From a virus (lineage: Duplodnaviria; Heunggongvirae; Uroviricota; Caudoviricetes), in the IMG/VR virus record IMGVR_UViG_2778261381_000005: a DNA stretch of 61,778 bases. One strand, 5' to 3'. Of this stretch, positions 36,971 to 47,656 are shown in pieces. Below the pieces are notes generated by a model. That model did not search any database, was not told where the DNA came from, and saw only the letters and a program-made list of their open reading frames with translations. Positions within the stretch are counted from its first letter, which is position 1, and each line of letters begins with the position of its first letter. Made by a program: the position numbers and the translations under genes.

Positions 36971-37127
36971 CCCGTCTCCTTTATTTTAATTTGCGCAATT
37001 GTCGCCTTGTAGTGTACTCCAGCTACGACATTTAATCATTTATGAGAAATGCTGTTATCACATGGCAGACATAAGGCCATTTTGTTACTATCAAGCCCCT
37101 TTTCACTACAAAGAAGTAATGCCTACT

Positions 37128-39161
37128 ATGACCCAAGTCGCGAAGAAAATTCTGGTGACGTGCGCGCTGCCGTACGCTAACGGCTCAATCCACCTCGGCC
37201 ATATGCTGGAGCACATCCAGGCTGATGTCTGGGTTCGTTACCAGCGAATGCGCGGCCACGAGGTTAATTTCATCTGTGCCGACGATGCCCACGGTACGCC
37301 GATCATGCTGAAAGCACAGCAGCTTGGTATCACACCGGAGCAGATGATTGGCGAAATGAGTCAGGAACACCAGACTGATTTCGCAGGCTTTAACATCAGC
37401 TATGACAACTATCACTCGACGCACAGCGAAGAGAACCGCCAGCTGTCTGAGCTTATCTATACTCGCCTGAAAGAGAACGGTTTTATTAAAAACCGCACTA
37501 TCTCTCAGTTGTACGACCCGGAAAAAGGCATGTTCCTGCCGGATCGTTTTGTGAAAGGCACCTGCCCGAAATGTAAAGCGCCAGATCAATACGGCGATAA
37601 CTGTGAAGTATGCGGTGCGACTTACAGCCCGACTGAACTGATTGAACCGAAATCGGTGGTTTCTGGCGCTACCCCGGTAATGCGTGATTCCGAACACTTC
37701 TTCTTTGATCTGCCTTCTTTCAGCGAAATGTTGCAGGCATGGACCCGCAGCGGCGCGTTGCAGGAGCAGGTGGCGAACAAAATGCAGGAATGGTTTGAAT
37801 CCGGCCTGCAACAGTGGGATATCTCCCGAGATGCGCCTTACTTCGGTTTTGAAATTCCGAACGCGCCGGGCAAATATTTCTACGTCTGGCTGGACGCGCC
37901 GATTGGCTACATGGGTTCCTTCAAGAATCTGTGCGACAAGCGCGGCGATACCACCAGCTTCGATGAATACTGGAAGAAAGACTCCACCGCCGAGCTGTAC
38001 CACTTCATCGGTAAAGATATTGTTTACTTCCACAGCCTGTTCTGGCCTGCCATGCTGGAAGGCAGCAACTTCCGCAAGCCGACCAACCTGTTTGTTCACG
38101 GCTATGTGACGGTGAACGGCGCGAAGATGTCCAAGTCTCGCGGCACCTTTATTAAAGCCAGCACCTGGCTGAATCATTTTGACGCCGACAGCCTGCGTTA
38201 CTACTACACTGCGAAACTCTCTTCGCGCATTGATGATATCGATCTCAACCTGGAGGATTTCGTTCAGCGCGTGAATGCCGATATCGTGAACAAAGTGGTT
38301 AACCTGGCCTCCCGTAATGCAGGCTTTATCAACAAGCGTTTTGACGGCGTGCTGGCAAGCGAACTGGCTGACCCGCAACTGTACAAAACCTTTACTGATG
38401 CCGCTGAAGTGATTGGCGAAGCATGGGAAAGCCGCGAATTTGGTAAAGCTATCCGTGAAATCATGGCATTGGCTGACCTGGCTAACCGCTATGTCGATGA
38501 ACAGGCTCCGTGGGTGGTGGCGAAGCAGGAAGGACGCGATGCCGATCTGCAGGCGATTTGCTCTATGGGCATTAACCTGTTCCGCGTGCTGATGACGTAC
38601 CTGAAGCCGGTACTGCCGAAACTGACTGAACGTGCAGAAGCATTCCTGAATACAGAACTGACCTGGGATGGTATCCAGCAACCGCTGCTGGCGCACAAAG
38701 TTAATCCGTTCAAAGCACTGTATAACCGCATCGACATGAAGCAGGTTGAAGCACTGGTGGAAGCCTCTAAAGAAGAAGTGAAAGCCACTGCCGCGCCAGT
38801 TACTGGCCCGCTGGCAGACGATCCGATTCAGGAAACCATCACCTTTGATGACTTCGCCAAAGTTGACCTGCGCGTGGCGCTGATTGAAAACGCGGAGTTT
38901 GTTGAAGGCTCTGACAAACTGCTGCGTCTGACGCTGGATCTAGGTGGTGAAAAACGCAATGTCTTCTCAGGCATCCGTTCTGCTTATCCAGACCCACAGG
39001 CACTGATTGGTCGTCACACCATTATGGTGGCTAACCTGGCTCCGCGTAAAATGCGCTTCGGTATCTCCGAAGGTATGGTGATGGCTGCTGGCCCCGGTGG
39101 GAAAGATATCTTCCTGTTAAGCCCGGATGCTGGTGCTAAACCTGGCCACCAGGTTAAGTAA
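37128..39161 (+). CDS. metG: methionyl-tRNA synthetase
   Basis: HLGHMLEH (HIGH), KMSKS, zinc knuckle CPKC...CEVCG; ORF-track start at 36999 rejected in favour of ATG 37128 (MTQVAKKIL). Confidence 0.95.
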
Positions 39162-43321: not shown

Positions 43322-43609
43322 ATGCTCATGACTGATTTCACCATTACCCCTAAAGCACAAAATGTATTTCTTGAATCATGGCTGGACTTGCCGGAAACAG
43401 AACAGCAAGAAATGGATCATGTGGATTATGACGAGCAGGTAAGCACGCGATTCTTCCACTTTGAGGGATGCGTTTACGACATTGCCGACTTCATGCGAGA
43501 TGACCGCTTCCCTGAATGGCACGCAAGCTATCCACTAAACGCCTTTGCCATGCTGATGATCCGTGTGGATGATTCAGGGGATACCATCGACATCGGTCTG
43601 CTCCACTAA
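43322..43609 (+). CDS. hypothetical acidic protein
   Basis: RBS gagga; motif 1 at 43290-43310. Confidence 0.5.
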   Translation: MLMTDFTITPKAQNVFLESWLDLPETEQQEMDHVDYDEQVSTRFFHFEGCVYDIADFMRDDRFPEWHASYPLNAFAMLMIRVDDSGDTIDIGLLH

Positions 43610-43612
43610 AGA

Positions 43613-43640
43613 TTAAGGCCACCAATGCTGGTGGCCTTAA
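43613..43640 (+). terminator. terminator hairpin, copy 2
   Basis: TTAAGGCCACCA atgc TGGTGGCCTTAA. Confidence 0.5.
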
Positions 43641-43813
43641 ATGACCATCCTGTTTCCCGCAGGCTAAAAACACCAACCTCTTACCTCCAGGCAACCGACA
43701 AACCCACCTGTTCCCGTCCGGCTACCGCAACTTTCCACTTTGACGCCTTATTCGTACAACGATAATTAACACCAACAAGAAAACAATTTGTTATTTACGA
43801 TAAGGAATTAATC

Positions 43814-44296
43814 ATGAATTTTATCGCTACTGTAAACGCACCCGCACATGGCAATATCGCTGTAACGTTCTCTGACATTGAAAAACGAGTACTTGGTGCA
43901 TGGCGCGACAATGAGACGGTAGAACTGTCAGCACAAGAAAAATGCATTATTGCACGCGACATCATTGGCAATCGTCGTTACTCGCGGGTATTTGAGAAAG
44001 CATATGTGGTAAATTCTGGATTCGGAACGTTCGTCTTTCCGGTGCGCTCCGGGCGATTCTGCCAGTCCAAGCTGATTGAGTTCGCTACGCAGATTTCTGT
44101 CTGGATTAAAACTCAATCGTCGTTCAAATTTTCCGACGATGAAGCAGTATCGCAGGGGATGCGGATCGCCAACAATGCGATTAAATGCAAAAACATTACG
44201 TATACCGCTGGCGTTGATACATGGAAACTGTTTTGCGCTAACTTTATGCTGAATGTATACGCAAGCAACCGCATCCACATCCTTGATGGCGTGTAA
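43814..44296 (+). CDS. hypothetical protein
   Basis: RBS aagga; motif 1 at 43785-43806. Confidence 0.55.
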   Translation: MNFIATVNAPAHGNIAVTFSDIEKRVLGAWRDNETVELSAQEKCIIARDIIGNRRYSRVFEKAYVVNSGFGTFVFPVRSGRFCQSKLIEFATQISVWIKTQSSFKFSDDEAVSQGMRIANNAIKCKNITYTAGVDTWKLFCANFMLNVYASNRIHILDGV

Positions 44297-44837
44297 CTGA
44301 GAAGAGGGCCAGAAACGGCCCTTTCTCTATAGCCACCAGCTGCCGCAGGGAAATTTTCAGAAACGGCGAGGAACGTATTCATGAGCCGACGGGAAACGGC
44401 CAGGATTTTTTCGGGAAACGGCTGCATTCGCCTTTATGTAGAAAAAAACATCGGGAAGCTGGTGGAATCCAACCAGCGGTTGTCGGACAGGCGAGCGGGG
44501 AAAATTATGATGACTTTCGTCGCCTGAGACATCCAGATTTCTTTCGTAGCATAATCACATACGTGATTAAGTGGTGTGATTATGTGAAAAATCACGCGCA
44601 CATAATACGCGAGCGGATACGGAACAAAACAAAATGCCGATCCGCGCCGACAAATAAACGCGGATCACATAGCAAGACTAAAAGCCAATGATTAACCATA
44701 CGCTATAGCGCAATATAACGCGTTTTAAGCGCGTTAATGTGTTAAGTAATGGGTATGTACTGGTAAGGATATAAAAGCGCGTTTATGGCGTTATTTTGGC
44801 GCTTATTTTTATGTTGTTGGAGTGAGTTAAAGACAAT

Positions 44838-44912
44838 AAAAAACGCGCCATCAATGGCGCGTTATTGTGGAAGTATTGGAAACGAAAAAAGCGCCCATAG
44901 TGGGCGCTCGAT
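44838..44912 (-). terminator. tandem minus-strand terminators
   Basis: AACGCGCCA tcaa TGGCGCGTT and AGCGCCCA tagt GGGCGCT, each followed by T-run on the minus strand. Confidence 0.55.
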
Positions 44913-44913
44913 T

Positions 44914-45144
44914 TTATTTGTGTAAACTGATTTTAAATCCCATTTCTACAAACGCTTTTAACATTAAAAATATATCAGCGTCGTTCACGTCTGCTTTTTT
45001 TCGCTCCTGGTCGCTCAATAAATCAATTTTACGCGTTGTTTCATCGATAAACTCGACTGCGCGCCCAGCGTAACCAGCGATCCCAGCGATGCGATTAACA
45101 TAATATTCGTTATGGACGTTAACGCCAGCGATAAGAACAAACAT
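44914..45144 (-). CDS. hypothetical protein
   Basis: Strong RBS aaggag; last gene of three-gene minus-strand operon. Confidence 0.5.
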   Translation of the reverse strand: MFVLIAGVNVHNEYYVNRIAGIAGYAGRAVEFIDETTRKIDLLSDQERKKADVNDADIFLMLKAFVEMGFKISLHK

Positions 45145-45164
45145 GATTAAGCTCCTTAAAAAAA

Positions 45165-45368
45165 TTAAATAGAATTTTGAAGTTTTCCGATTAATGCGCT
45201 TAAACGTAAGTATTCACGTTTGCGCTTGCAATCTCGCTTGCTGTTAAGCAAATCAGAAAACGTAAAATTTAATTGGTCGCGTTGCGCGATTAAATCATCG
45301 ATTAATTCTAGTTTATAAGCGCGATACTTTGCGCGATATTCCGCGCGGATCTTGTCATAGCTGACCAT
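45165..45368 (-). CDS. hypothetical basic protein
   Basis: RBS aaggag after intercistronic hairpin AGCGCCCACTATGGGCGCT. Confidence 0.45.
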   Translation of the reverse strand: MVSYDKIRAEYRAKYRAYKLELIDDLIAQRDQLNFTFSDLLNSKRDCKRKREYLRLSALIGKLQNSI

Positions 45369-45416
45369 TTTCAAAGCTCCTTTAAAGCGCCCATAGTGGG
45401 CGCTTGATTCCATTAA

Positions 45417-46067
45417 TTACGCTTTGAAAGCATCAGCTAAATAATTGTAGAAATCATTTTTAATGAAGCGATATTGCTGAGTACCAGCTTTCGCGCTCCC
45501 AGCTCCTTTGACTTTTTCAACAAGTCCAAGACGTTCGCAAAGATTGATCAACTGGTTGGCTTGAGTATAACCAGCGTCCAATTTAATTTCACACGCTTTT
45601 TTAGCTTCATTCATTAAATCGAAAACAGCGCCATTAGTGAACGTGTCGATCTCGTCGTTAATCATATCGATTAAAGCGAATACACGAGATCCAGACATAT
45701 CAGCGATGGAATAAACGCATTTACCAGATTTAATTGATTTAACCAGATAAACCAGTTTTTCCAGAGAATAACTATTAGTCATTGCATCACGGAAAAATAC
45801 TTCTGGCGCTTGTTTGCTTGCTTTAATCGCATAGTAGAAAACAGAGCATAATTTTTCGTCTTCTACTGCGTTTACGACGTTGTTGATGAAGTAAGCAAGT
45901 TTAGTGGTCGCAGCTTGCATATTTGCTTTGTCTGCTTTAGTGTGCGTACCATTTTTATAATGTTCGTTATATGTTTGAGTTGCCAGATCTGCTTTTTCGC
46001 GCAGTTCATCGGATACAATGGAAGCAGCTTCAATGATGGATTTTTTAGAAATGATAATGTTAGCCAT
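45417..46067 (-). CDS. hypothetical protein with highly-expressed-gene codon usage
   Basis: Codons dominated by GCT, GGT, CGT, AAA, GAA, ATC, TTC; AT-rich promoter region upstream. Confidence 0.55.
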   Translation of the reverse strand: MANIIISKKSIIEAASIVSDELREKADLATQTYNEHYKNGTHTKADKANMQAATTKLAYFINNVVNAVEDEKLCSVFYYAIKASKQAPEVFFRDAMTNSYSLEKLVYLVKSIKSGKCVYSIADMSGSRVFALIDMINDEIDTFTNGAVFDLMNEAKKACEIKLDAGYTQANQLINLCERLGLVEKVKGAGSAKAGTQQYRFIKNDFYNYLADAFKA

Positions 46068-46350
46068 GATAATTTTTCCTTATGTAAATTTAAAATTTAT
46101 TGTCGTTAGCGTCTTCGCTTTCGACGAGTTCAATTATCGATATGCGAAAAAAGATTGCAAGTGTTTTTTTTAAATTTTTTGCAGGGATGAAAGTCCTAGA
46201 AATAAAAGCGAGATCGTCGAAGGTGTTCCCTAAATAAATAATTGATTGCGGCTTTAGACCTTATATATATTTAGGTTATTTGATTTGTAGATATAAAGAA
46301 GTGATGTGAAAAATAATAACCGGACTTAGCCGGTTATTAACCTTATAGAT

Positions 46351-46659
46351 TTATTGAACAGACTCTACAGCCTTACGATTGGTGTCAAATAGCGCATCAA
46401 CGAACTGTGCCGATGACTCGCTAGATTCGCAATCCAACATTGCCCGTTCTTCATTTGCCACTTTCTTACACAGTTCCACATTCTCGCCTATCGCTTTTCC
46501 TGCTTTTACGGCTGCCGAAAATTGATACATGCAAACTGATACATTCTGAGACGTTGAGCACACGTCATTCATCAGCGACTGAATGACAGGCTTATAGTCC
46601 ATTGCATTTGCCGCAACTGAGCAAAGTAAAAATAATGGTGGTAACAATATCGATTTCAT
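46351..46659 (-). CDS. hypothetical secreted protein
   Basis: Signal peptide MKSILLPPLFLLCSVAANA; bidirectional hairpin after stop. Confidence 0.5.
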   Translation of the reverse strand: MKSILLPPLFLLCSVAANAMDYKPVIQSLMNDVCSTSQNVSVCMYQFSAAVKAGKAIGENVELCKKVANEERAMLDCESSESSAQFVDALFDTNRKAVESVQ

Positions 46660-46662
46660 AAC

Positions 46663-47187
46663 TCAAAAAGGCAAAATTCGTTCAACCCAATCGAACAAAA
46701 CAACTATTTTTCTACCGTTCTCGACACGTAGTGTAACCTGACAAGCATCTGCGCCTGCTGACACCCCCTCAATTTCACGGCCATCCGCCATGTACACCCT
46801 TATAGATTTGTTTGCTTTGTAGGCTTGGTTGCAAATTGCAAAAAAATCGCGGCGTGATGGCCGATTATCGACATAATCAGGGTGAACTGTTAGTCGACCT
46901 TTGAAATCGTGAGCGATACTGTCAACCACACCTGATTCAATTGTACTAATGCGTTCAAGTGGGAGCCTTATACGATTTTCTTTGTCAAAAGGGGCTGGGC
47001 AAAGGTCAACTTTGTTACGAGATGGCATGAGGCCATAAACGTACATGCAAAACGCCTGGCCATCTTCGAGAGTGACCCTTACAGGAATTTGTTCTCTGCG
47101 CCAGAACATCAGTAGTTTTTCAACGTTAGTGTAATCTCGCGGCCAGAGTTCAGCTTGGATACCGTAGGTAATATCTTTGGTTGTCAT
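46663..47187 (-). CDS. hypothetical protein
   Basis: ATGA overlap with upstream lipoprotein stop; start trimmed from ORF-track 47265. Confidence 0.45.
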   Translation of the reverse strand: MTTKDITYGIQAELWPRDYTNVEKLLMFWRREQIPVRVTLEDGQAFCMYVYGLMPSRNKVDLCPAPFDKENRIRLPLERISTIESGVVDSIAHDFKGRLTVHPDYVDNRPSRRDFFAICNQAYKANKSIRVYMADGREIEGVSAGADACQVTLRVENGRKIVVLFDWVERILPF

Positions 47188-47191
47188 GTCA

Positions 47192-47656
47192 TCACAGAGT
47201 TGTTGGCAGAATGTCGATGTCACCAGAATTGCTGGTAAACACCCTGAACGCTTTTGTGTCTCCATTCTTCAGAGTCGTTTCTCGCTCTTGACGAGCGGGG
47301 TTTAGAGCACATAAACCTGCACCTTCAAGAGATGCACCCACAATTAATTCTCCGGCATTTAAATGGAAAGTCGCTTTTTCGCCTGTAGCCAGTTTTGCGA
47401 CAGTTTCGCCGTTGATGAAAATGGAAGCATCACATCCAGCTCCTACAAAACCTGTGTCTCTCATTACCACCAACGTAGCTGGCGCTGCGCTTTGATACTT
47501 TAACACTTTGGCCTGCGGTGCTGGTTTGGCGTCATGGATTGATATTGGGTGTGATTGGCACGCGGCAAGCATCAACACTGGTAACGTTAGTAGAGGGAGA
47601 AGCGAGTATTTCATGATAGTTTTAGAACAGAAAGTGAACAGTATGGGAGACTTCAT
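47192..47656 (-). CDS. putative lipoprotein
   Basis: RBS agggaga; lipobox-like LAAC after hydrophobic stretch. Confidence 0.45.
   Translation of the reverse strand: MKSPILFTFCSKTIMKYSLLPLLTLPVLMLAACQSHPISIHDAKPAPQAKVLKYQSAAPATLVVMRDTGFVGAGCDASIFINGETVAKLATGEKATFHLNAGELIVGASLEGAGLCALNPARQERETTLKNGDTKAFRVFTSNSGDIDILPTTL

Follow-up and report, generated by a model that had tools for sequence, protein, structure and literature searches.

A conserved core gene and exchangeable small genes with hairpin joints in a candidate transcription unit of an SSU5-like phage-plasmid

A three-gene operon on the minus strand of IMG/VR virus record IMGVR_UViG_2778261381_000005 (61,778 nucleotides, a stretch referred to below as the window) is interpreted here as an autonomous transcription unit of the SSU5-like phage-plasmid backbone, in which a conserved core gene is followed by mini-genes exchanged at hairpin joints and in which expression is lytic or conditional. 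We hold this interpretation with modest confidence. The genes are named g216, g67 and g76 for the lengths of their products in amino acids (aa); all three had been reported in an initial annotation made from the sequence alone and are present on a check of the open reading frames (ORFs). The independence of the unit is borne out by hairpins, terminators and a predicted promoter of its own. The same annotation regarded the operon as an acquired, strongly expressed cassette of unknown function, and the evidence given below divides that description into parts that hold and parts that do not.

In a megablast comparison of positions 44600-46400 with phage records, the closest matches were Escherichia phage CMS-2020a (97% identity), PhiR41_1 (94%), Cyrano (pLF82; 92%) and Salmonella phage SSU5 (82%). 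These are SSU5-like phage-plasmids, and on the strength of this 82-97% DNA identity the window is assigned, by sequence, to an SSU5-like phage-plasmid of E. coli. Such elements are common in clinical Enterobacteriaceae, with relatives that include plasmids of Salmonella Typhi and Yersinia pestis, and almost none of their non-structural genes has a known role. For comparison, 88 related loci were retrieved using the protein profile of g216 itself: three from annotated phage records, five from GTDB genomes (including a Y. pestis plasmid contig) and 80 from IMG/VR. The hosts of SSU5-like loci are Escherichia, Salmonella, Y. pestis, Kluyvera and Buttiauxella; Klebsiella phages appeared as megablast matches only. 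Tests of uniqueness across the whole genome (about 108 kb) were run on the window joined to the remaining 47 kb of the related PhiR41_1.

The core gene and the small-gene slot

The gene g216 occurs in 88 of the 88 SSU5-like loci, and its neighbours are constant: p92, a lipoprotein gene and a FljA-like gene lie upstream on the same strand, and p160 lies convergently downstream. Distant homologues, at about 30% identity, retain synteny with ParB, a DEAD-helicase and the FljA-like gene. To judge by gene order and sequence, g216 is a fixed core gene of the SSU5-like backbone and belongs to a tiny orphan family. Among 5.8 billion proteins, none of its homologues has a name, almost all are from Enterobacteriaceae and many lie on contigs of about 105-112 kb, while an exhaustive profile search of 1.84 billion representatives returned just 24 g216 clusters, none of them annotated.

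What follows g216 is variable. Between the hairpins described in the next section, related loci carry nothing (L058, L061), g67 alone (the SSU5 type), g76 of type A alone (the Cyrano type), g76 of type B alone (the Y. pestis contig), g67 with g76A (the window), g67 with g76B, or g76B and g76A separated by a hairpin. Present in SSU5-type loci, g67 is missing from Cyrano-type loci, and loci L084-L088 carry a variant of equal length that is 32% identical; the two types that fill the g76 slot in different relatives are 45-51% identical to each other. Acquisition, proposed initially for the whole operon, thus stands for g67 and g76, which are present or absent cassette by cassette, and falls for g216, which is syntenic in every locus and shares its composition with its orthologues.

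Pairwise comparisons indicate how the cassettes are exchanged. Profiles of identity per 100 nt, read together with hairpin positions, show that the block missing from L058 relative to SSU5 (L002) is one hairpin-plus-g67 unit; between L002 and L050, g67 is replaced by g76B; and in both pairs backbone identity on either side is 89-99%. Each hairpin is bordered on its left by six bases that follow the upstream gene, and on its right by bases that follow the downstream gene or the backbone. We propose that identical hairpin copies serve as portable short-homology joints between which the g67 family and g76 types A and B would be inserted, deleted and swapped, hairpin to hairpin, either by homologous recombination or by slippage or template switching at the palindrome.

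The arrangement of core gene, hairpin, unrelated small ORF and hairpin is repeated in distant lineages with other hairpin sequences. The small ORF is a 29-aa hydrophobic one in L195 and an unrelated 76-aa one in L200; the latter, downstream of a distant homologue, showed no homology to g76 in an hhalign comparison (probability 0.1). Because the layout recurs in distant lineages with unrelated ORFs, the sequences suggest that small genes have long had a slot downstream of g216.

Profile searches name no function for any of the three proteins, as the initial annotation had anticipated. Against Pfam, NCBIfam, PADLOC and PDB sequences they gave sub-threshold noise only, and PHROGs returned function-unknown families plus one implausible label. 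Annotated relatives call all three genes 'hypothetical protein', with the exception of the SSU5 orthologue of g67. Structure prediction was more informative for g216 (pI 7.6). An AlphaFold model built with 22 sequences (mean predicted local distance difference test score, pLDDT, 82; predicted template modelling score 0.71) consists of two long antiparallel helices (residues 8-68), further helices and then a C-terminal helix-strand-helix-helix-beta-hairpin-helix arrangement. Foldseek searches of the PDB and BFVD with this model matched winged-helix domains almost exclusively, all at E > 0.01; the matches comprised chains from MukBEF entries, Orc1/Cdc6, TubR, HlyU/CzrA, RTP, LmrR and phage 'wHTH' proteins. 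No full-length structural match, combining the helical hairpin with the winged helix, was found in the PDB or BFVD.

The C-terminal 90 or so residues of the model superpose on winged-helix regulators (MarR/ArsR-type proteins, TubR, RTP, Orc1/Cdc6 and the MukBEF-entry chains) and, like winged-helix DNA-binding proteins, g216 has conserved polar residues in its putative recognition helix. Y167, T168, Q169, N171, Q172 and L173, which rank among the best-conserved positions of the family, lie in this helix, and the helix is invariant within the SSU5 clade. Unlike those regulators, g216 falls in no sequence family and joins a long N-terminal helical hairpin to its putative winged-helix domain. On the basis of the model, we take g216 for a probable DNA-binding protein of the winged-helix type, dimeric and from an uncharacterised family, the helical hairpin likely serving for dimerization and the winged-helix domain for DNA binding, and its most likely role is that of a sequence-specific DNA-binding regulator.

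The small proteins yielded less. The g67 product belongs to PHROG 6145, labelled 'MIT family metal ion transporter', a label repeated in the annotation of the SSU5 orthologue; we reject this assignment as implausible for a soluble, basic protein (pI 9.7) of 67 residues without a predicted membrane segment. It has a weak match to DUF6899 (E about 0.01-0.02) and no predicted fold beyond coiled-coil-like sequence matches. The ORF listing gives this middle gene as 82 aa through an in-frame ATG at 45413, a reading that crosses the hairpin. The 67-aa form is probably the correct one and the extension (45369-45413) probably unused, since several close relatives (L014 and L022 among them) lack it or have it out of frame. 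The g76 product belongs to PHROG 1585, of unknown function, and its AlphaFold2 model (beta-alpha-beta-beta-alpha-beta) is of low confidence (pLDDT 64.5). Word-index searches with g67 and g76 returned phage-plasmid proteins only. Within g76, an IAG-IAG-YAG stretch is encoded at 45065-45099 by a 9-nt unit repeated three times in tandem (CCAGCGNNN on the plus strand). The loss of units in or just after this (I/Y)AG run, a slippage-prone repeat, leaves homologues with lengths of 73, 75 or 76 aa.

The invariant hairpin and its loop

A hairpin between the genes had been noted initially. The 19-nt sequence AGCGCCCACTATGGGCGCT in fact stands just after g216 and again, identically, just after g76 (44890-44908), a repetition of which no instance is expected by chance, and no hairpin separates g67 from g76. 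Its conserved core is a 17-nt perfect palindrome, GCGCCCA-N3-TGGGCGC, with a predicted RNA fold of about -15 kcal/mol. When the 88 loci and the window were searched for matches with up to three mismatches, 139 copies in distinct contexts had exact arms. Mutated copies at true hairpin positions numbered two, both in L047, and one further locus, L059, lacks an exact first copy. Exactness of the arms persists even where g216 identity has fallen to 61%. Among the 20 loci that share the architecture of the window, per-site heterozygosity is 0.000 in the arms and 0.44 in the 3-nt loop of the first copy, compared with 0.03 in a left flank of 60 nt and 0.027 across g216.

The loop, by contrast with the arms, occurs in both orientations: CTA (112 copies) and TAG (17), CAA and TTG, TTA and TAA. 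Opposite orientations are found even among genomes whose g216 genes are 99-100% identical, and TCA and TGA loops sit in the two copies of one genome, L039. Such flips are the outcome expected of intramolecular template switching at an inverted repeat; read in this way, the sequences imply that the palindrome folds in vivo, and the hairpin copies may also exchange sequence with one another. Unchanging arms around a flipping loop would then be a visible footprint of hairpin formation in the cell. Minute loop inversions at chloroplast hairpins form a comparable pattern. Template switching at inverted repeats and quasipalindromes is a reviewed mutation mechanism in E. coli (PMC7202029), and the sites described there resemble the present hairpin in having a loop found in both orientations between conserved arms. 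No earlier description of loop inversion at phage-plasmid terminators was found in the literature.

The position of the hairpins fits a role in transcription termination. The two tandem same-strand terminators proposed initially were confirmed by sequence at 44889-44909 and 44842-44863, where a GC-rich stem-loop runs directly into a U-rich tract (predicted folding energies -15.5 and -14.6 kcal/mol), and terminator-like sites in the surrounding 4 kb number 11, against 4.0 +/- 1.6 in shuffles of this region. The internal copy has only UUU after its stem and fails the tail criterion of the scan, so that it is predicted to be at best a partial terminator. In our proposal it would act as an attenuator or 3' stabilizer that raises the output of g216 above that of the downstream genes, while the last copy, alone in carrying a full U-tract, would end the transcript with the second terminator as back-up.

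One may ask whether the hairpins are ordinary intrinsic terminators and nothing else, their identity reflecting common descent and the cassette variation reflecting illegitimate recombination near gene boundaries. Every copy lies just after a stop codon, the last has a U-tract, distant homologues have hairpins of other sequence at the equivalent place, and the neighbouring terminators are fairly conserved. Stems of the AAAGCCC...GGGCTTT type are, moreover, generic for terminators. What this explanation accommodates poorly is that the flanks recombine independently on either side of the hairpin, that indels and replacements amount to exactly one hairpin-to-hairpin unit, that unusual loops are common to both copies in one genome (TCA and TGA in L039, which suggests exchange between copies), and that the arms do not vary at all whereas the second terminator does: the latter is conserved with changes in most lineages and absent from L084 and L086. 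We regard the purely terminator-based explanation as unlikely, without its being far-fetched.

Alternatively, the palindrome could be a protein-binding site, either a DNA operator for a g216 dimer or an RNA hairpin bound by a small protein of the operon or by the FljA-like repressor. Half-site centres some 10 bp apart in a perfect palindrome of 17 bp, invariant arms around a free centre in the classic operator pattern, a location that always adjoins g216 and a recognition helix that is invariant in the SSU5 clade would all suit an operator. Distant g216 homologues (about 30% identity) each have a hairpin at +11 to +22 as well, with different arms: ACGCGCC/GGCGCGT, AGATCCGCA/TGCGGATCT (L195), AAATCCGCT/AGCGGATTT and GCCCACT/AGTGGGC. 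The case of L195, in which a near-identical recognition helix (GYTQVNQLIKLAERIGLV) is accompanied by an unrelated hairpin, weakens the candidacy of the hairpin as a family-wide g216 operator; furthermore, the palindrome has no copy close to the g216 promoter and none in the rest of the genome, and termination already explains the position and the U-tracts. Because the distant homologues have other arms, because of L195 and because no copy lies elsewhere, a family-wide relationship between protein and site appears unlikely from the sequences, and we judge the binding-site explanation as a whole improbable. The same sequences are more simply read as a hairpin with a terminator or attenuator role, fixed and copied within the SSU5 clade.

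Three further observations concern the hairpin. After the most distant g216 homologue (P0122), at 2326-2348 of L200, stands a hairpin TGTGGGCGCT-CAC-AGCGCCCACA without a U-tract, which has the 7-nt arms of the SSU5 clade in swapped order and may be a coincidence or reflect an old relationship. The idea of a widespread mobile element was dropped: exact IMG/VR copies outside SSU5-like contigs are few, lie in unrelated contexts and are estimated to be at about chance level. An Rfam search over 43500-47500 returned nothing near the gathering score.

Among known systems, the closest parallel is the promoter early stem-loop (PeSL) of T4-type phages, a short terminator-like stem-loop joined to an early promoter, where homologous recombination is proposed to insert, delete and swap small ORFs (PMC2839356, PMC4122927). 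In both cases conserved repeats flank variable small genes, and here too the end-points of indels and swaps fall inside the repeat (L002/L058 and L002/L050). The systems differ in that a PeSL combines terminator and early promoter, whereas at the present locus nothing promoter-like separates the genes, and the hairpin stands by itself ahead of a Shine-Dalgarno sequence; and PeSLs are dispersed over several hyperplastic regions, whereas this hairpin is confined, in two copies, to one operon of a siphovirus-type phage-plasmid. The locus is thus PeSL-like in operation without being a PeSL.

Intercistronic hairpins that tune operon expression are familiar from the repetitive extragenic palindromic (REP) sequences of malEFG and from the puf and pap mRNA segments. 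As in those operons, a stable hairpin here follows a well-adapted first gene, with weaker signals for reading through into the genes beyond it. Unlike those hairpins, the present one is reused after the downstream block and marks recombination end-points, and its attenuating role is a predicted one.

Integrons invite comparison for a different reason, since they too have promoterless cassettes read from one upstream promoter, each with a palindromic 3' element. Taken literally, the likeness would make the locus an integron-like array whose hairpins are attC-type sites for a site-specific recombinase, and the loop inversions could be viewed as a hint of activity on folded DNA. No integron integrase (IntI) lies nearby, however, the neighbours being the FljA-like gene, the lipoprotein gene and the helicase; the sole integrase annotated in the examined part of PhiR41_1 lies at a distance of about 50 kb; the cassettes number two at most; and the site is far too short and perfect (a 7-8-bp stem with a 3-nt loop, 17-19 nt in all). 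An attC site measures 57-141 nt and has imperfect arms with extrahelical bases. We consider an integron-like array barely credible.

Returning to exchange at hairpin joints, we consider the cassette joint and the flipping loop to be modestly novel. The locus exemplifies a fixed, regulator-like gene accompanied by trade in tiny accessory genes at a 17-base joint. If the joint truly directs this exchange, the PeSL idea would extend from T4-type lytic phages to temperate phage-plasmids, and the joint would offer a natural landing pad for engineering, of modest practical value until the functions of the proteins are known.

Promoter, leader and expression

Upstream of g216, a consensus scan together with the sequence itself revealed a AAAAAATTTAAAAAAAA run followed by TTGCAA, a 16-nt spacer and GATAAT. 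The A-run, CTTG and (G/C)ATAAT are conserved across lineages. This arrangement is consistent with a sigma-70-type promoter, strong to judge by its sequence, whose A-tract resembles an UP element. Nothing promoter-like was found on the minus strand between 44914 and 45413. A sigma-28 promoter, suggested by CGATAA in the -10 region, was discounted, since TAAA is missing where the spacing would require it and distant lineages have not retained the motif. Strong ribosome-binding sites, as initially reported, were confirmed by direct reading: AAGGA lies 9 nt before the g216 ATG, AAGGAG 8 nt before that of g67 (45377-45382) and AAGGAG 7 nt before that of g76 (45152-45157).

The predicted mRNA would begin with a structurally conserved stem-loop, formed by the palindrome GTCGAAAGCGAAGACGCTAACGAC and folding at -8.3 to -9.8 kcal/mol. 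Its pairs covary, the outer GTCG..CGAC with ATCG..CGAT and the inner AGCG..CGCT with AGCA..TGCT, and a stem-loop occupies the same position in the minimum-energy folds of 10 of 10 diverged lineages even though the stem sequences differ. In L197 and L194 it amounts to no more than a weak helix of 3-4 bp, and the individual z-scores span -5.2 to +0.4. The element could be an mRNA stabilizer, a site for an RNA-binding protein or a DNA operator; that it is the general operator of a phage repressor was rejected because the palindrome is unique in the genome. Farther upstream, about 60-135 nt from the predicted transcription start, the boxes TTTATTTAGGGAACACCTTCG and TTTATTTCTAGGACTTT rank with the best-conserved blocks when the upstream DNA of SSU5-like lineages is aligned, and are likewise unique in the genome. 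They remain recognizable in L194, L197 and L199, where the g216 homologue is about 30% identical, and match no known factor consensus that we could recognize. From this conservation they are probably a regulator-binding region.

Data from the plasmid state contradict the claim of strong expression. In E. coli LF82, the host strain of Cyrano, published RNA-seq gives log2(5 + FPKM) values (FPKM, fragments per kilobase of transcript per million mapped reads) in lysogeny broth of 2.32-2.78 for CYRAN_113, the orthologue of g216, and 2.32 for CYRAN_112, that of g76 (PMC9928086, Table S1). These values lie at the pseudocount floor and correspond to 0-2 FPKM, where the median of the element is 9.8 in the normalised units of the table (PMC9928086), and they rise merely to about 5.5 after 6 h in macrophages (PMC9928086, Table S1). 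The operon immediately upstream, comprising the helicase, p92, the lipoprotein gene and the FljA-like gene, reads 18-150 (PMC9928086, Table S1). In Cyrano, then, the unit is off in the plasmid (lysogenic) state; the operon is therefore not constitutively strong. High expression at another stage is possible, as the quality of the promoter and the codon usage of g216 would allow, and we propose that the unit fires on infection, on induction or under a specific stress; no lytic-cycle expression data were found in the literature. A promoter that looks strong and yet is silent in lysogeny points to an unrecognized control step.

Codon usage supports the initial impression of codons typical of highly expressed genes for g216 alone, and there moderately. 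The codon adaptation index (CAI), calculated from Sharp-Li E. coli weights and expressed as a z-score against the same protein in the window's own codon usage, is 0.451 for g216 (z = +3.2, rank 8 of the 75 ORFs in the window). It is 0.236 for g67 (z = -1.1) and 0.304 for g76 (z = -0.7), at or below average; a major-capsid-like ORF, for comparison, reaches 0.627 (z = 12.9). Codon statistics thus set g216 apart from the genome and leave the other two genes undistinguished from it. A difference in composition from the neighbouring DNA was upheld, with a GC content of 39% in the operon region against about 46% for the window and a six-fold enrichment in GCGC (23 per kb in 44600-45420, against 3.8 per kb window-wide); 12 of the 12 GCGC-richest 400-nt windows fall within 44501-45651. 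The orthologues of g216 likewise combine low GC (39-41%) with a moderate CAI (0.39-0.46), and these are therefore old properties of the gene.

Taken together, these data bear on the initial proposal that the operon is a horizontally acquired, constitutively strongly expressed cassette, that is, a moron. Promoter and terminator signals of its own, the low GC content, the above-average CAI of g216 and the patchiness of the small genes are all features of such elements. The distribution is, however, sporadic for g67 and g76 and not for g216, which keeps its place in every retrieved relative and in the distant homologues with a composition common to its orthologues; expression in the lysogen is wanting in the Cyrano orthologues; and g67 and g76 lack codon bias. 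Neither CYRAN_113 nor CYRAN_112 is in the published list of Cyrano morons (PMC9928086). The moron explanation is largely refuted for g216, and for the operon it is very improbable.

The FljA-like neighbour suggests another possible form of control. The minus-strand ORF at 46663-47265 matches Pfam Flag1_repress (FljA, PF03614) at E = 2.5e-84 and contains a weak Hfq-like stretch (E = 0.001). Proteins of the FljA type block translation of fliC mRNA (PMC2652032), and the present one could silence host flagellin or something on the element itself. Nearly all loci have it upstream of g216, the distant (about 30%) homologues immediately so, and its Cyrano orthologue is expressed in lysogens in which g216 is silent. 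This adjacency, the opposite expression states of the two genes and the covariation in the 5' stem-loop leave room for a post-transcriptional switch. In lysogeny the FljA-like repressor would bind the g216 5' stem-loop and leave the strongly promoted mRNA untranslated and unstable; on release, g216 produced in a burst would target the upstream boxes, or the GCCGTTTCY array described below, to drive a phage-plasmid decision (such as lytic entry, or a mode of replication or partition), with the hairpin slot supplying exchangeable modulators. The whole region is syntenic in any case, and the E. coli fliC leader (5' untranslated region) bears no convincing similarity to the g216 leader. We give this switch little credence.

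Several points weigh against the autonomous unit with exchangeable mini-genes that we favour. An apparent mosaic junction in L046 lies about 400 nt inside g216, away from the hairpin, so that this locus was rejected as a case of a clean junction at the hairpin itself; and the window has no hairpin between g67 and g76, which means that not every junction is hairpin-borne. The hairpin is therefore a frequent joint and not an obligatory one. Invariance of the arms could stem from the short evolutionary time covered by the SSU5 clade, and from how seldom double compensatory changes can arise, and not from any role in recombination. Cyrano, the one relative behind the lysogen data, has no g67, and we infer lytic or conditional expression from silence combined with good signals.

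Feature coordinates and surrounding sequence

The features of the operon are collected in Table 1. The GC-core palindromes beyond the second terminator may be decayed hairpin copies or back-up terminators.

Table 1. Coordinates of features of the g216 operon and its flanks in the window
Feature	Coordinates	Strand	Description
Upstream boxes	46190..46238	-	TTTATTTAGGGAACACCTTCG at 46218-46238, TTTATTTCTAGGACTTT at 46190-46206
Predicted promoter	46133..46180	-	A-tract 46164-46180, -35 TTGCAA 46155-46160, 16-nt spacer, -10 GATAAT 46133-46138
5'-proximal stem-loop/palindrome	46102..46125	-	GTCGAAAGCGAAGACGCTAACGAC; begins a few nt past the predicted start site
g216	45417..46067	-	216 aa, pI 7.6; core gene
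Internal hairpin, copy 1	45386..45404	-	AGCGCCCA-CTA-TGGGCGCT, then UUUAAAGGAG
g67	45165..45368	-	67 aa, pI 9.7 (basic); optional cassette gene
g76	44914..45144	-	76 aa; optional cassette gene
Terminal hairpin, copy 2, with U6 tract	44884..44908	-	Identical 19 nt; predicted first full intrinsic terminator
Second tandem terminator	44842..44863	-	AACGCGCCA-TTGA-TGGCGCGTT and U-tract
Further GC-core palindromes/hairpins in AT-rich DNA	44595..44830	-	For example 44638-44667 and 44595-44611

Over 44600-45420, which spans both small genes and about 300 nt of non-coding DNA, the densities of GCGC and CGCG are 6-7 times those elsewhere in the window, and part of this excess comes from CGC-GCN codons that encode an RA(E/K)Y repeat in g67. 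In the relative L058 the spacer contains tandem AGCGCGTTTT units with a 10-nt period.

On the upstream side, the terminator of the preceding operon, TAATAACCGGCTAAGTCCGGTTATTA (46314-46339), is preceded by ATCTATAAGG, and a partial second copy of this context, ATATATAAGGTCTAAAGCCG (46245-46268), lies about 80 nt downstream; its sequence suggests a decayed duplicate of the terminator module. On the downstream side, just past the stop of the convergent 160-aa gene, four copies of GCCGTTTCY on the minus strand (44311-44422) start 22-48 nt apart, and the rest of the window holds one copy against 1.0 expected. This array is kept in all aligned SSU5-like lineages, with a similar CCCGTTTCCC run in the distant L194, and looks like an iteron or centromere-type protein-binding array.

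Elsewhere in the window, a plus-strand ORF of 699 aa at 37062-39161 has a CAI of 0.518 (z = 12.5) and is the second most host-adapted gene; by position, it may correspond to CYRAN_100, annotated in Cyrano as methionyl-tRNA synthetase.

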